Virus record (IMG/VR): IMGVR_UViG_3300012983_000031
Coordinates: 156,296-220,295 of that record
Length of the DNA stretch: 64,000 bases
Origin: a virus
Taxonomy: Duplodnaviria > Caudoviricetes
Reading direction: 5' to 3' (one strand)
Shown piece after piece: positions 294-54,914 of the stretch. A program made the translations under genes and the position numbers. The first letter of the stretch is position 1. Each line of letters opens with the position of its first letter. Below the pieces are notes generated by a model. That model was not told where the DNA came from and did not search any database. It saw only the letters and a program-made list of their open reading frames with translations.

Positions 294-326
294 TTTTTGT
301 AGTCATAATTTAGATTTTTTGTTTTT

Positions 327-6447: not shown

Positions 6448-7206
6448 ATGGCAAAGATAGTTATATATACTTGCATCATTGGAAAATATGATACACCATG
6501 CGATGACTTTGAAAAGCGTGAAGGATATGATTATAAATTGTATTCAGATATTGCAATAAATACGAACTCCTGGAATAGCTATATAATCAAGTTGGCGAAC
6601 TTAGATGAGCTTGGCGAGACGAAATGCCAGCGGTACATAAAGACGCATCCGTTCGAGTTTCTTAACGATTATGATGTTGTTGTGTATATTGACGCGAACA
6701 CAAGGATTGACGATAAGCTTTACAGATACATAGAGGCGAACATGGAAAATCCGATAACGTTTAAGGTTCACCCTAAAAGGAAATGTATATATGAGGAACT
6801 TAAAGAGTGCTGCATACGGATGAAAGAGGATCAAAAAATGTGCAATTTTCTTTATAGCAGGTATGAGAATGAGCGTTACCCAGCAAAAAATGGTTTGTTC
6901 GAGAATAATATAATCATATCACATCCAAAAGATCCTAACGTTCAGGAAATATTCAGGCGTTGGTGGGATGAGATAAACATGTATTCAAAAAGGGATCAGC
7001 TTTCTTTGAATTATGTTTTGTGGAAATATGATTTAAAAAAATATGTGCATGCTGCTGCGACAAAGGATTTCCCTCCACGGAAGCATCACCCGTTGGGTTC
7101 GTTAGTGATCGAGGACAAAGAATCAGATAAAAAACCAAAACAAAAATCAGAAAAAAAAGTGGCAGAATTTTTCGGAAAAAAAATTGAAATATTCTATAAA
7201 AAATAA
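6448..7206 (+). CDS. DUF616 (TOD1/MUCI70-like) glycosyltransferase-like protein
   Basis: YTCIIGKYD, YIDAN, HP.R.CIYEE, WW.EI...SKRDQLS.NYV. Confidence 0.85.
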   Translation: MAKIVIYTCIIGKYDTPCDDFEKREGYDYKLYSDIAINTNSWNSYIIKLANLDELGETKCQRYIKTHPFEFLNDYDVVVYIDANTRIDDKLYRYIEANMENPITFKVHPKRKCIYEELKECCIRMKEDQKMCNFLYSRYENERYPAKNGLFENNIIISHPKDPNVQEIFRRWWDEINMYSKRDQLSLNYVLWKYDLKKYVHAAATKDFPPRKHHPLGSLVIEDKESDKKPKQKSEKKVAEFFGKKIEIFYKK

Positions 7207-7409
7207 TTGAAAATTTTTTTTGAAATATTTTATAAAAAATAATTGGGAAAATTTTTTGAAAATTTTTTTGAAAAAAAATGAAAAATTTTTTAAAAATATT
7301 TTTTTATATAAAATAAAAGTTGTAACTTTGCAACAGAATTTAATAACATACAAGTAATGTTGCTTGCATTTTCGAAATACAAGTATATACGCTTTCAAAA
7401 AACATTTAT

Positions 7410-7670
7410 ATGAATAATATTTTATCGAAAGAACAGATAGATGTTTTTATAAAAACATATTGCGCTACACTTACAGGATTGTTTGCTGCAGATAAAAATA
7501 ACACCCTGTCGGTGCATGACGCGATTGATTGGGCGGCAAAAACAGCCATGTTCACTGTTGAACGCCTTACGGATCAAATTGGTCTTCTGTCAGCGCGTCA
7601 AATGATAGAGAACCTTAAGAATGTTGAACGTTCTAACAATCCAGATTATCCTAATGTGACAACAAGATAA
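7410..7670 (+). CDS. Hypothetical protein
   Basis: ORF downstream of TAACTTTG promoter element (7323-7330). Confidence 0.65.
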   Translation: MNNILSKEQIDVFIKTYCATLTGLFAADKNNTLSVHDAIDWAAKTAMFTVERLTDQIGLLSARQMIENLKNVERSNNPDYPNVTTR

Positions 7671-7779
7671 AAGTACTCCATAATTATATTTCAAATTGCT
7701 TCCGTGACATATCGGCGATATATTTAGACGACAGTTATAATTCTCCATATTCAACACAGCTGAATACATGTCACGGGTT

Positions 7780-7815
7780 TAGGGTCATCCTTCAAAAAAA
7801 GGTGACCCTTTTTTA
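7780..7815 (+). terminator. Intrinsic terminator
   Basis: AGGGTCATCC...GGTGACCCT + T-tract. Confidence 0.7.
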
Positions 7816-7868
7816 TTTGTGAATGATTCACAAAAAAGGATCGCCAGAGTGTAGCGATCCAATGTTCG

Positions 7869-8063
7869 TTAGATTAAGTTTCCACATGGTTTCCAATCTG
7901 CGATGAAAGTTTTAGAAATGGATTCTAACAATGGTGGAATCGGTTTCTGGAGTTCGCTGTTAACATTTGTTAACTTTTGAACCTCGGTTGTTTGTTTAAC
8001 ATCTGTTAACATTTCAGTGTTATCACCTATTAAAATATGTTTATAAATGTTAATTTGTTGCAT
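7869..8063 (-). CDS. Possible small protein
   Basis: Between a minus-strand -7 element (8088-8095) and a terminator (7831-7860); sequence is rich in TTAAC motifs so may be non-coding. Confidence 0.35.
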   Translation of the reverse strand: MQQINIYKHILIGDNTEMLTDVKQTTEVQKLTNVNSELQKPIPPLLESISKTFIADWKPCGNLI

Positions 8064-8354
8064 TGTATTTGGTAGTTAAATCTGTTGCAAAGTTACATCG
8101 AATATTTTATATAGAAAAGAAATTGTATGATGAATGTTCAATTTCACATTTGTTAACAAACGTGTTTGCGTTCAGTAATGTCAATGACATTACTTATTTT
8201 CGATAATGTCAATGACATTACCGAACTCCAGCGAACACCACACATCTCTCATCGTATGGGTGCCACGCATTTTGTAATGTCATTGTCATTACCAAAGTTG
8301 GATAAATAGAGAGATATACAAATGTGTATATTATATAATGAGTAGAAAATAAAG

Positions 8355-8750
8355 ATGGAAACAGAGATAAGTAAATATTGGAGAACTGAGTTAGGTCGTG
8401 AGTTCAGGGCAAAGATACTTAATAAGATAGGAATGTATGCGGAGAATCTTGGAGTTCTTGACGTTCTCGATGGTAGGAAATATCATGCAAGTTTTAACTT
8501 AAGTTCAGTAATAGCAACAATAATTCCGTTGAGTATGTCATGCAACATGTCTTCACGAAAGGTTTCGTTTGTCGCTTATATAAATGTTGACGGGCATGTG
8601 AATAAGTCTGGAGAATGGATTAGGGATAATATTGAACTTTTTGATACACAGTTAAATAAAATCAATACAGATATTGTTTGTGTTAACAGCCTTTTGATAT
8701 TACTCGACTGTTTGCATACCGCTGTGCAGACAAATAAAATAATAAAATGA
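8355..8750 (+). CDS. Hypothetical protein
   Basis: 131-aa ORF directly after the triple palindrome; GATAAATA at 8301-8308 upstream. Confidence 0.7.
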   Translation: METEISKYWRTELGREFRAKILNKIGMYAENLGVLDVLDGRKYHASFNLSSVIATIIPLSMSCNMSSRKVSFVAYINVDGHVNKSGEWIRDNIELFDTQLNKINTDIVCVNSLLILLDCLHTAVQTNKIIK

Positions 8751-23821: not shown

Positions 23822-23907
23822 GATCAAAAAAGTTCGACCATGTCATCACGACAGAGCCGAACCAAAATAACAATCTTCAATTAATCATTAAAAATGGTCT
23901 ATACATG
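23822..23907 (-). ncRNA. Candidate small RNA (gene-less promoter-terminator unit)
   Basis: -7 element 23910-23917, ~45-nt U-rich body, GTGA-loop terminator 23826-23862; at most a 9-codon ORF. Confidence 0.6.
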
Positions 23908-24152
23908 TGCAAAGGTACGAACTTATTTTGAATCCGCCAAATAAATCAGGTTAAAATACGTTAAAGGAATATCATTTTCGTTACACTACGAAAATGGTCT
24001 GCGGGACAAAGTAATGTCATTGACATTACCGAACTCCTGCGGAAGGCGCACCATGTTGTCTGGAGTTCCTTATCGCACATAAAAAAGTTCGGCTACCTTC
24101 ACAGGCAACCGAACACAATTATTTAATTTCAAATAATAATGTACACAAATTC

Positions 24153-24551
24153 TTAAAAATTATTATGTAGATAATAAAGCCAATTCTGAATCTTTACAAA
24201 TGGAGTTTCCCTTATCTCGATGAATCTTATTTTCCACTTGTACGCCGTCTTTATGTCGTTAGCGTAAAGATACTTTTCCAGAGAATGAACGTTCGATCCT
24301 CCCTTGCCTATCCACAATCCAGGCTTGTGCGTATAGATGTAAACCAAGTTATCAATCACGATTACATCATTGACAGGATAATTTACGTTGTTGTGATACA
24401 TCCAAACAGAAATGTTCTCACAAACATGATCAACAATTTCCATATCCATCACCAAATCAGAAAGGAATCGGAGTAGCCAGAAATTTTTTTTATAACTACC
24501 AAGATGTTTTTTCAGGTAGTTCTTTATGTATTTCTTCACGAATTTGTTCAT
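24153..24551 (-). CDS. KH-domain protein resembling the ribosomal protein uS3 KH motif (paralog 1)
   Basis: IYTHKPGLWIGKGGSNVHSLEKYL = GxxG loop as in uS3 RPGIVIGKKG. Confidence 0.65.
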   Translation of the reverse strand: MNKFVKKYIKNYLKKHLGSYKKNFWLLRFLSDLVMDMEIVDHVCENISVWMYHNNVNYPVNDVIVIDNLVYIYTHKPGLWIGKGGSNVHSLEKYLYANDIKTAYKWKIRFIEIRETPFVKIQNWLYYLHNNF

Positions 24552-26414: not shown

Positions 26415-26515
26415 AAATGTTTTTTGTTGGTTAATATTATTTTTTATTTTGATGATACAAAGTTACGGACTTATTTTGAATCCACCAAATTATTTTAGTT
26501 AAATGATGTTAACAC

Positions 26516-26596
26516 AATAAAAATAGGATCGAACCTGTTTCACAACAGACTCGACCCGTCAAAAAATCTAATAATTTAATACCATGAAAAACACGT
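26516..26596 (-). ncRNA. Candidate small RNA (gene-less promoter-terminator unit)
   Basis: -7 element 26599-26606, body UUUUCAUGGUAUUAAAUUAUUAGAUUUUUUG, GTGA-loop terminator 26525-26557. Confidence 0.6.
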
Positions 26597-26870
26597 TGCA
26601 AAGTTACAATTTTTCCATGAAATAAAAAATAGGAAAATCCCTATTTCTTTTTCCAAAATAAAATTCAGTAAATTTTACAAAAATAAATTTACAAAAATTC
26701 ACAAAAACGAACTACAACCGCTGGCGTTCGTCATCAGTAATGTCAATGACATTACCAAACACCGCACCCGCGCTTTCACATTCGTTAACATATTCAATCA
26801 GGCACATAAAAAGGGATCGACCCCAAACAGGATCGACCCCCAGACCATGAGCGAAATATATCACACTTTA

Positions 26871-27533
26871 TCAATCTTCATATTCAATGTTCCAGCAGCA
26901 ACGTTTGTAACCTTCAAGACCCTCTACTGATTCCGCAACGGAAATGTTATCGAAAGCCCATTTGCCGACATACTTTGCGTTTGGCTTCGTCTTGAGTTTG
27001 CCATCTATTGTTACATCTGTACAATAATCACCGCCTCCCCTTCCGTTACCGAACGAACACAAGATGGGTAGTGGGTGAATGATCCACTTGTCAGGATCTT
27101 CATCAGGAAACTCAACATACTGCTTCTTTGTGTGGTTGATTGCATACTTGTATTTGAAATCCTGAAAATCACTTACACGATCACAGAGTTCATTATATTC
27201 TGGTGTCTTGCTGTCATCAGAATTTCCGTAAATGAAAACATCTGCCTCGTCGTACACATCAACGCCGCTGTCATCCTTCTTCGTAAGACGATGATGTGCA
27301 GTGCCGATCCGATCAGCGTAATCTCCGCACCAAACGAAGGGAACGCCAGTCTTTTCCGTATCATACAAATCAATCATTCTCAATGCAGCCATGACATAAT
27401 AATTGCCGACATAAGAGTGCTCCATCATCTTCGCCATGTTGCCGAAATCGTAAGGCGAAATGGTAGCCATGATGATGCTTTCTTCATCCTTGTAGTTCGG
27501 CTTAAGGATCACCGCCCTGTAATATTGTCCCAT
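26871..27533 (-). CDS. Conserved hypothetical phage protein
   Basis: MGQYY...KMMEHSY.GN...WCGDYAD...HPLPIL..GNGRGGGDY...G.WA.D. Confidence 0.8.
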   Translation of the reverse strand: MGQYYRAVILKPNYKDEESIIMATISPYDFGNMAKMMEHSYVGNYYVMAALRMIDLYDTEKTGVPFVWCGDYADRIGTAHHRLTKKDDSGVDVYDEADVFIYGNSDDSKTPEYNELCDRVSDFQDFKYKYAINHTKKQYVEFPDEDPDKWIIHPLPILCSFGNGRGGGDYCTDVTIDGKLKTKPNAKYVGKWAFDNISVAESVEGLEGYKRCCWNIEYED

Positions 27534-40325: not shown

Positions 40326-40739
40326 TTAATAATCATTCGCTATGGTGTAAAGTGCAAGGTTGACTTTGACCCAGTTGCTGTTATTGACAGTCGATTCTAT
40401 GATCCTGATTCTGTATTCAGTATCGGATTTACTGTTAATATATTTGTTGAGGCTTTCAATATCCTCGCCACGTTTGCCTATCCAGATTCCTGGCCGATCT
40501 GTGACAAGATATATCACATCATCTATGACGAAAAGATCATTGAACTGTCTATTCTGCTTATTGTTTTTAGTCATCCACAATGCGAAATAGATGCAGATGT
40601 TTTCAGTCTGTTTCTTATCCTCTGCAATGGATGCAAGCCAACGGTAGAAAAGATAGTTTTTCTGATACTCGCTTCTCGAATTTTTATTCAAAAAATTTTT
40701 TAGAAATCTTTTCAGATATTTCTTTAAAATATTTTCCAT
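40326..40739 (-). CDS. KH-domain protein resembling the uS3 KH motif (paralog 2)
   Basis: LVTDRPGIWIGKRGEDIESLNKYI vs uS3 [20 protein letters not shown]. Confidence 0.7.
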   Translation of the reverse strand: MENILKKYLKRFLKNFLNKNSRSEYQKNYLFYRWLASIAEDKKQTENICIYFALWMTKNNKQNRQFNDLFVIDDVIYLVTDRPGIWIGKRGEDIESLNKYINSKSDTEYRIRIIESTVNNSNWVKVNLALYTIANDY

Positions 40740-44276: not shown

Positions 44277-44846
44277 ATTCGTATATGCGTTTTTTAATTA
44301 AACAATTCAGGTGCAAAGGTAAGCATAATATATGAAACCGCAAAATTATTTAAGTTAAATAGTGTTAAGCGAACTCCAGATATTTCCAAGACGAAAGATG
44401 ATTGGCTGGCAGTAAAAGGTAATGTCATTGACATTACTCACGGATCGTGAAGGCGGATTGCGATCTGCCAGTTTTTTATCTTGGAGTTCATAAAATATGC
44501 GAAATCCAGATAACAGAAATATAACCTCATCTCTTTAGCGTTCTGTAATGTCAATGACATTACTTGCCCTCAAGAAGGCGCATACATCTCTTCAGCGTGA
44601 ATAGTTGACTGATCTCTGGAGTTCGCTTATATATATTGTACCCGTTCATTTTCAAATATTATTATGAGAAAAGTTTTGCGTTAATTTTTGAGATGGTTTC
44701 CTGTAATAATCATGAAAATAATCTGAAAAAAGTTTTGGAGTTTTAACATCATTTAACCAAAATAATTTTGCCAATTAAAATATTGTCCGTACCTTTGCAC
44801 CAGATTAAGAAACAAAAGTATTAACCAACAAAAAACATTAATGATT

Positions 44847-45389
44847 ATGGCAACAGTATTTGGAATCACGTTCAACTCACAGAACGAATTTGACATCAAC
44901 AAAAATTTCGACTGCATCAGTTCAATGGAAGATGGAGAAGAAGAAACAACGTTCCGCACGAAGAAGGTGTATCATCATGACGACGATCCTGACATCAGGT
45001 TTGATTACAGGTATGTCATAACGGCATGGACATCGGATCAGAACACTACGTACTATGCTCTGTATCTCATTCCAGAGTTCAGTTCAATCAGCGAACGCCA
45101 CCAGCAAGAAATAATCGATTTCTGTGGATGTGACACTCCTAACATCAGCGACATCATGAGTTACGGTGCTGATATTATAATGGGTGCAGAAACATACGAC
45201 GGGGAATACAGTCAGGATGTTGTGGACAATATCGCACAGGTCATCGACACAATCGACTCATTGATTGGATTCTATCTTGACAAATACCAAAACAGAATCG
45301 GTACGACAGGATGGGATATGTTGGAAGACTACATCAATGATGTGAACTGGATGACCGCCACTATGGAACGGTACAAAAAACAGGCATAA
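44847..45389 (+). CDS. Hypothetical protein
   Basis: Consensus promoter (-7 at 44790-44797); ends GFYLD...NRIG.TGWD. Confidence 0.8.
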   Translation: MATVFGITFNSQNEFDINKNFDCISSMEDGEEETTFRTKKVYHHDDDPDIRFDYRYVITAWTSDQNTTYYALYLIPEFSSISERHQQEIIDFCGCDTPNISDIMSYGADIIMGAETYDGEYSQDVVDNIAQVIDTIDSLIGFYLDKYQNRIGTTGWDMLEDYINDVNWMTATMERYKKQA

Positions 45390-48640: not shown

Positions 48641-48918
48641 TATGCCATTTAGATTTTTTGTTGGAGGCTCGCACCCATACCCTTGGGTTCGAGTCTTTTT
48701 TATGCAATTATGCGAACTCCAAGGAACCTCATCATCTCTGGGTGATCTTGTTGTAATGTCAGTGACATTACTTGATGGACGACGGATCCAATCCTTGGTT
48801 AGCATAGGCTTGCTACATTTAGTTAAATAATGTAAACACAATGAAGAAATATGGATATTCGTTTTGTTATTTCAAATATTATTCGTACCTTTGTACCGAA
48901 TTAAAAAACTATATAGCA

Positions 48919-54351: not shown

Positions 54352-54447
54352 AAAAAATCAGCGGCTACCCTCACGAGCAACCGCTGACAAAAAATGTTGA
54401 TATGAGCAAAATAAAAATCCCTTAATTCATTATTCTTTTTAATTGTG
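54352..54447 (-). ncRNA. Candidate small RNA (gene-less promoter-terminator unit)
   Basis: -7 element 54451-54458; only ATG-AAT-TAA mini-ORF; body GGGAUUUUUAUUUUGCUCAUAUCAACAUUUUUUG; GTGA-loop terminator 54358-54387. Confidence 0.6.
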
Positions 54448-54914
54448 ATACAAAGTTACGGATTTCCTATGACATATACAAGAAAAACACAAACGAAATT
54501 AAGGTCATTAACAAACTTTAACGCACAGCATTGACCACCGAAATCTTCAGATGCCCGACAGCAGGTAATGTCAGTGACATTACTCAGCTCTCAGTTTCGA
54601 GTTGATTTCCATCACCGATTTCTCGTAAAAAACTTCCAAGAAAATCTCGGAAAAAAATCAAAAAAGTTTCAAGAAAAATTTCCAAGAAAAAAATGGAAAA
54701 ATTCATGCGGAAAAATCCAAAGTAATGTCGCTGACATTAAACGCTGGAAAGTATAGCAGAAGTCACTGTCCAAGCAAACAGAACGCAACAGGAGGTAATG
54801 TCGCTGACATTACAAGACGACCGAATAGGGCGGATACTAATCCGTCCTTACACAAAAAATGGGATTGCCCCTTGCGGAACAATCCCACGAAACAATTCTT
54901 ACATATATGAAAAC

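Follow-up and report, generated by a model that had tools for sequence, protein, structure and literature searches.

Why should a large phage keep, between the gene for a 220-aa protein (27533-26871) and the next gene (26414-26262), a 455-nt spacer that has a promoter and a terminator of its own? The genes surrounding this spacer are all on the minus strand. The window, by which we mean the whole 64,000-nt stretch of DNA that was analysed, forms the final 64 kb of a 220-kb IMG/VR record estimated by CheckV to be ~60% complete, and the carrier is a large uncultured phage of gut-type Bacteroidales. Our answer, to which we give a probability of about 0.7, is that the spacer holds a self-contained gene for a small RNA (sRNA) of ~76 nt that belongs to the FopS/GibS family. 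To judge from its letters, 26594-26517 on the minus strand is a genuine and well-formed, though diverged, sRNA gene of the FopS family, and the phage probably uses its host's own regulatory code in infection. The function that we propose for the RNA in this phage draws on homology and on the anatomy of the locus. The kind of RNA is already known; hardly any study has dealt with it in phages, and among gut phages the design found here, with the seed alone, recurs widely.

Anatomy of the proposed RNA gene

The features of the locus, in the order in which the minus strand is read, are as follows.

26812-26841, minus strand: terminator of the upstream 220-aa gene (26871-27533), 13 pairs, 7 of them G-C; upstream edge of the sRNA cassette
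26737-26755, no strand assigned: copy of a 19-bp palindrome, one of 62
26599-26606, minus strand: primary-sigma -7 box of the Bacteroidota type, TAACTTTG in a TTG-TAACTTTG-CAAC core, with a weak -33 element
26574-26594, minus strand: 5' seed of the RNA, nt 1-21, equivalent of FopS R1', with the start at 26594 placed by homology
26558-26573, minus strand: U-rich linker with the 11-mer TTAGATTTTTT (26571-26561), not conserved in host FopS
26526-26557, minus strand: intrinsic terminator hairpin of 14 bp (6 G-C) with a GUGA tetraloop, from the predicted fold
26517-26525, minus strand: U-rich tail, predicted 3' end
26440-26513, minus strand: conserved promoter/leader module of ~74 nt belonging to the next cassette (-7 box 26465-26458; gene 26414-26262)

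The sequence-only reading had seen here a -7 box, a short body, a hairpin and a T-rich tail, and had called the -33 element weak. The letters and coordinates that it gave for the box (TAACTTTG, 26606-26599, minus strand) are correct, the body, the hairpin (26557-26526) and the tail (26525-26517) lie where it had placed them, and we agree on the -33 element. The putative RNA start lies 4 nt beyond the -7 box, a gap equal to that in bacterial FopS genes, and an A/T-rich stretch separates the box from the palindrome copy (26755-26737) that precedes it on the minus strand. The TTG-TAACTTTG-CAAC core recurs at further promoters of the phage, at 7323+, 59443+ and 374+. An A/T-rich upstream region combined with this core marks a second class of promoter in the window, comprising 7323+, 374+, 59443+ and the sRNA promoter.

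The predicted transcript runs from about 26594 to 26517 on the minus strand, giving a length of ~74-78 nt (~76 nt), and contains no meaningful ORF. The ~40-nt body between the putative start and the hairpin is predicted to be unstructured, and the RNA as a whole to consist of an open 5' part followed by the terminator, with a folding energy of -19.8 kcal/mol (z = -3.6) that none of 200 shuffled sequences equalled. For nt 1-21 the predicted mean unpaired probability is 0.64, compared with 0.67-0.77 for the seeds of host FopS RNAs. The promoter module of the next cassette begins 13 nt past the sRNA terminator stem.

What is the role of the 11-mer in the linker? The sequence-only reading had noticed its recurrence, and exact copies of TTAGATTTTTT are indeed present at 310-320 (+) and 48649-48659 (+). 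That reading had, however, taken the UUAGAUUUUUU segment to be a shared seed, and here we differ, as the other copies are sense-oriented pre-terminator motifs and the seed identified by homology is nt 1-21 (26594-26574). The exact copies of TTAGATTTTTT and a near copy at 20447-20437 (-) each precede a terminator stem by 3-7 nt and read in the direction of the transcript; the stems behind them (327+, 48667+ and 20436-) are of the type GGGTCGA...TTCGATCC. Because its copies are sense-oriented and sit just 5' of terminator stems, TTAGATTTTTT is, on its placement, a terminator-proximal module and represents neither target sites nor a seed. When one mismatch is allowed it occurs 14 times, against 7.9 ± 2.8 expected, a count reached by 3 of 100 shuffles. 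A tRNA or tmRNA identity was considered for the TTCGATCC-like arm and rejected; ARAGORN found neither.

The window has other repeated or unusual elements. The 19-bp palindrome, GTAATGTCA-N-TGACATTAC, is present in 62 copies (with at most 2 mismatches) between window positions 8175 and 58091, usually ~85-140 nt upstream of cassette promoters; the remaining 156 kb of the genome have no copy, and no exact match was found in IMG/VR. A 74-nt promoter/leader module (TTAACATCATTTAAC ... TTTGG ... TAACTTTG followed by an A-rich leader) stands before small gene cassettes in some 25-35 copies between ~10300 and ~54500. Just past the terminator of the 220-aa gene, and running through the palindrome, is a relatively G+C-rich ATG ORF of 31 codons (26712-26807, minus strand) without a Pfam hit, which may be a cassette remnant. 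Two further ORF-less promoter-terminator units lie at 23822-23945 and 54352-54500, both on the minus strand, and for neither was a homologue found in Rfam (E < 0.5) or, by blastn, among GenBank phages; the terminator at 23863 and the one in the FopS-like gene share ~65% identity. Two paralogous small proteins (24153-24551 and 40326-40739, both minus strand) give sub-threshold matches to KH_2, at 20.7 and 18.1 bits against a cut-off of 22, and are possible RNA-binding proteins, encoded in the nearer case ~2 kb from the sRNA gene.

Relation to the FopS family

FopS RNAs are encoded by 14 genes in Bacteroides thetaiotaomicron (Ruttiger et al. 2025, PMC11697453). The genes have canonical sigma-ABfr promoters, and each RNA opens with a single-stranded seed, R1' (nt 1-21), and has one hairpin, the terminator (PMC11697453). 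Experiments have established that the seed pairs beside the start codon of susC-like mRNAs and blocks their translation, the targets including PUL72 and at least seven other PULs (PMC11697453). This repression is relieved by the RNA-binding protein RbpB, which binds the 5' single-stranded portion of FopS and of GibS, with a footprint of ~55 nt on FopS and an enriched motif of 41 nt (PMC11697453).

A comparison with covariance models of Bacteroides sRNA families, which the sequence-only reading had proposed, gives a full-length match. The Rfam FopS model, RF04319, aligns with 26594-26517 (minus strand) over model positions 1-71, the full model, at 37.4 bits, below its curated gathering threshold of 56 bits. 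The E-value of this match is 5.3e-4 for a 501-nt region, 0.068 for the 64-kb window searched with all 4227 Rfam families, and 5.7e-5 for the whole 220-kb record searched with RF04319 alone. An Rfam scan of the window at curated thresholds gave no matches at all, FopS surfacing only in a permissive scan, and a B. thetaiotaomicron genome used as a control scored above the RF04319 cut-off, as expected. No second FopS copy was found with RF04319 in the 220-kb record, where the next best score is 18 bits.

The resemblance is concentrated in the seed. Nucleotides 1-21 agree with the Rfam FopS consensus at 20 of 21 positions, the sole difference being A for G at nt 19. Among species-representative genomes, the exact 21-mer (21/21) is present at 25 loci in Bacteroidales, which belong to Muribaculaceae, Tannerellaceae, Coprobacter, Bacteroidaceae, Candidatus Caccoplasma and unnamed Bacteroidales. 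Nearly all of these loci are canonical FopS genes, in which a TAnnTTTG box is followed by 4-6 nt, the seed, a middle segment, a terminator with a GNRA loop and a U run, and one Muribaculaceae copy also has the TTTG-CAAC junction of the phage. In an alignment of 15 bacterial and viral copies, nt 1-18 of the RNA are invariant and little else is. We estimate from base composition that the exact 21-nt segment would be expected by chance ~1e-6 times in 220 kb, counting both strands. It is the full-model match to RF04319, together with the identity of the seed, that leads us to assign the element to the FopS family.

Canonical FopS genes with A at nt 19 are found in Muribaculaceae, Tannerellaceae, Coprobacter, Candidatus Caccoplasma and rumen Bacteroidaceae. 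The presence of FopS in these taxa goes beyond the Bacteroidaceae range given in PMC11697453, and the genomes concerned apparently have only ~3 copies each.

A permissive blastn search of GenBank phages with the spacer gave a single match, 41 nt at 92.7% identity in MT836368.1, which spans the -7 box and the transcript start. The element that this entry carries within 7484-8724 is a bona fide FopS, matching RF04319 at 78.8 bits, and has the same layout as in the phage: promoter, short RNA and GUGA terminator. Although labelled 'Bacteriophage sp.', MT836368.1 looks bacterial in our own judgement from its ORF list, a large membrane-protein ORF being adjacent to the element.

Host FopS and the phage RNA part company at nt ~22-27, beyond which no similarity is left. 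The linker and hairpin of the phage RNA are 65-68% identical to terminator modules of the phage (20436- and 23863-; scores 13-18), compared with 56-59% for the 3' halves of host FopS (scores 0-6), and the 3' half of the RNA looks slightly more like the phage's own terminator modules than like host FopS. Judged by these comparisons, the host-like part is essentially the seed alone; it stands exactly at the expected start site of a promoter in the phage's style, and the terminator behind it is in that style too.

Targets, other phages and a proposed role

Can the seed be expected to recognise the mRNAs that FopS does? Against the start regions of 11 full-length SusC-like genes, whose starts were chosen by eye in a Bacteroides MAG that has FopS genes with an identical seed of its own, the mean pairing energy of the seed is -12.2 kcal/mol, compared with -6.8 ± 0.85 for shuffled seeds, none of 300 of which reaches it, a result that is a property of the shared seed and not of the phage copy specifically. 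For ORFs with signal-peptide-like N-termini the corresponding values are -9.7 and -7.1, and the excess is much smaller than in the SusC set for other bacterial ORFs (-8.5 against -7.3) and for the phage's own ORFs (-8.0 against -7.0). The predicted excess for SusC agrees with the published FopS target class, within a small sample of hand-picked starts. No targets were apparent in the phage itself: the best duplex over 244 start regions (-18.0) is no better than those of shuffled seeds (-20.0 ± 2.2), and no second seed site with up to 5 mismatches was found on either strand of the phage genome. Near-perfect antisense sites in three bacterial genomes proved to be FopS genes themselves. The sequence-only reading had suggested a stand-alone trans-acting sRNA, with a 5' part antisense to the AUG-AAA starts of envelope or receptor mRNAs, and this proposal gains support from the RF04319 match, the seed identity and the published FopS mechanism.

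The exact 18-nt seed is present in at least 113 IMG/VR contigs, and the matches listed form 23 groups by their 3' sequence. Among the groups listed, a few are canonical FopS genes (three above the Rfam threshold), a few are the antisense of genuine gene starts, and most consist of the seed and a group-specific hairpin without a -7 box. Several of the copies listed directly adjoin tRNA genes (L020, L023, L085, L099 and L051), which suggests release by tRNA processing, and some have tape-measure or terminase genes a few kb away. A single sub-threshold FopS-like copy, at 35.7 bits, is present in each of two CheckV-complete phages (196 and 200 kb); no proteins shared with the present phage were detectable in the stretches compared.

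181904-181965: FopS-like element in the first of these complete phages (G004)
175177-175238: FopS-like element in the second (G005)

Some individual cases may be mentioned. In viral contig L021 a Hatchet ribozyme match lies ~2.5 kb from the FopS-like element, and viral contig L080, which ends in a canonical FopS gene, also has a group I intron match (86.8 bits, 7610-7844). In BX-TP2, an induced phage of Bacteroides xylanisolvens, an unannotated FopS/GibS-like gene lies near the end of the record (PQ571285.1, ~44780-44850). This gene, which comprises a promoter, a seed with the GibS-type A at nt 12 and a terminator, adjoins a DNA methyltransferase gene and could be host DNA at a prophage border.

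No relatives covering the locus were found by megablast and tblastn against GenBank phages, by a protein-pattern scan of IMG/VR, by exact and gapped DNA patterns in IMG/VR and JGI metagenomes, or with the 19-bp palindrome as probe. The upstream 220-aa protein has a 94%-identical copy on a contig of 1.1 kb that stops short of the sRNA, and a 45%-identical homologue on a 322-kb metagenomic scaffold (L166) from a distant jumbo relative. Behind the gene for this homologue, at 6697-7146, the scaffold has a GGATCGATCC-type terminator and then an A/T-rich spacer of 450 nt, similar to the one described here and with a host-type promoter, in which no FopS-like element was found.

How might such an RNA act? 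Because its gene sits in an array of host-promoter cassettes, host RNA polymerase would be expected to transcribe it early in infection. The 5' seed would then pair with the start-codon regions of host mRNAs, chiefly those for SusC-like TonB-dependent transporters, and would block their translation, as bacterial FopS does. The benefit to the phage is a matter for speculation: it might lie in reduced synthesis of abundant outer-membrane transporters that are possible receptors, in rewired glycan use, or in translation and export capacity set free. The phage RNA may also escape the RbpB antagonism that lifts FopS repression, because only ~22-27 nt of the ~41-55-nt RbpB-bound part are kept.

We suggest, tentatively and at less than even odds, that the copying of FopS seeds could be a widespread takeover strategy of Bacteroidales phages. 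Many unrelated lineages would each have one seed-led sRNA with a lineage-specific 3' part, which would shut down SusC-like transporters (possible receptors) or polysaccharide-utilisation programmes, perhaps beyond relief by the host. The lineages would include this jumbo phage, the complete 196-200-kb phages, tailed phages with the seed near structural genes, and those that embed it in tRNA arrays. Relief by the host is perhaps impossible because most of the RbpB-bound segment has been lost.

Could the element instead be an inert relic, a fragment of host FopS that recombined between a phage promoter and a phage terminator, with little or no RNA made and no role? A host-like part of only ~22-27 nt, a weak -33 element and the lack of the element in the distant relative are all as would be expected of a relic, and the repeated promoter and terminator modules and palindromes of the region favour shuffling. 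The host-like part is, however, exactly the functional seed, without a mismatch to natural variants. It begins at the expected start, 4 nt past the -7 box as in bacteria, a strong terminator follows at the normal distance, and the same seed has been kept by many unrelated phages with different 3' parts; a relic is unlikely. It is quite unlikely, too, that the RNA is mainly a protein decoy, titrating host RbpB or another FopS partner rather than pairing with mRNAs. This idea derives some force from the binding of RbpB to the 5' single-stranded portion of FopS and GibS (PMC11697453), and from the fact that the phage encodes no RRM_1 protein, but only about half of the RbpB footprint (~55 nt) or motif (41 nt) is kept in the phage RNA, and the affinity of RbpB is low-micromolar even for genuine FopS (PMC11697453).

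Two other explanations dispense with a trans-acting RNA. The promoter-terminator pair could be a cis element, an insulator or a transcriptional-interference device for the neighbouring cassette, with the FopS letters incidental; the next promoter module begins just 13 nt past the hairpin, and the two other ORF-less promoter-terminator units in the window have no homology to known RNAs. Such a device would leave unexplained why 21 nt agree exactly with the seed of a bacterial sRNA, when ~1e-6 chance occurrences are estimated for this genome, and we consider it very unlikely. A small-protein gene is extremely improbable. Suitable ORFs do exist, of 13 codons at 26585-26626 (+) and, with a TTG start, of 30 codons at 26601-26509 (-), but there is no plus-strand -7 box upstream, the minus-strand ORF would cross the terminator hairpin, and the same letters in bacteria belong to established non-coding RNAs for which sORFs have been excluded (PMC11697453).

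We return to a FopS-family sRNA gene as the preferred reading. In dominant gut bacteria, FopS RNAs hold a central place in the control of glycan uptake at the post-transcriptional level. If the reading is true, it would provide a clear Bacteroidota case of a virus that uses a host sRNA code, via a host-type early promoter, and would tie infection to the SusC-like transporters of the outer membrane, candidate receptors that are abundant on the cell surface. That more than 100 viral contigs share this seed, in many contexts, suggests a general phenomenon that has so far received no more than a one-line remark in the literature. The hypothesis that arises is of a seed-dependent fall in SusC synthesis upon infection or upon ectopic expression of the RNA.

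Comparison with known systems

The remark in question is a single sentence on one 'Caudovirales' metagenomic contig with a FopS sequence, accompanied by the suggestion that phages spread the gene (PMC11697453). That contig resembles the present phage in having a FopS-like sequence on phage DNA; it differs in that it represents one BLAST hit to a near full-length FopS, presented without a phage function or seed-only variants being described. Our literature search found no study of phage-borne FopS-like RNAs, and a 2026 review contains neither 'phage' nor 'bacteriophage'.

Bacterial FopS and the phage RNA have much in common. Both are specified by ORF-less genes with a sigma-ABfr-type -7 box, and both RNAs begin with the same seed, which in the phage agrees with the consensus at 20/21 positions and with natural variants at 21/21. 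In both a single-stranded 5' part leads into one Rho-independent terminator with a GNRA-type loop, and the lengths are similar, the phage RNA being slightly longer (~76 nt, compared with 65-70 nt for FopS). The two differ in copy number (one in the 220-kb, ~60%-complete phage record, compared with 12-15 on Bacteroides chromosomes). The conserved middle segment of FopS, part of the 41-nt RbpB-associated motif, is absent from the phage RNA, which has a U-rich linker instead, and its terminator belongs to the phage's type and not to that of host FopS.

GibS of B. thetaiotaomicron (RF04182), described by Ryan et al. 2020 (as cited in PMC11697453), shares with the phage RNA the R1 seed at its extreme 5' end. 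With the phage element the RF04182 model aligns in its R1 part only and scores 23.3 bits, where the threshold is 115. Unlike the phage RNA, GibS is ~145 nt long, with a second seed, R2, additional hairpins and a different promoter motif.

Further afield, several sRNAs of enterobacterial phages and prophages act on host mRNAs or sRNA networks, among them IpeX, which represses a porin, DicF and the anti-sRNA AgvB. The likeness is that a short RNA from a mobile element reprograms envelope or metabolic genes of the host by base pairing. These RNAs are unrelated in sequence, are mostly Hfq-dependent, and belong to temperate elements of Proteobacteria, whereas the phage RNA described here copies the seed of a host sRNA family and belongs to a phage of Bacteroidota.
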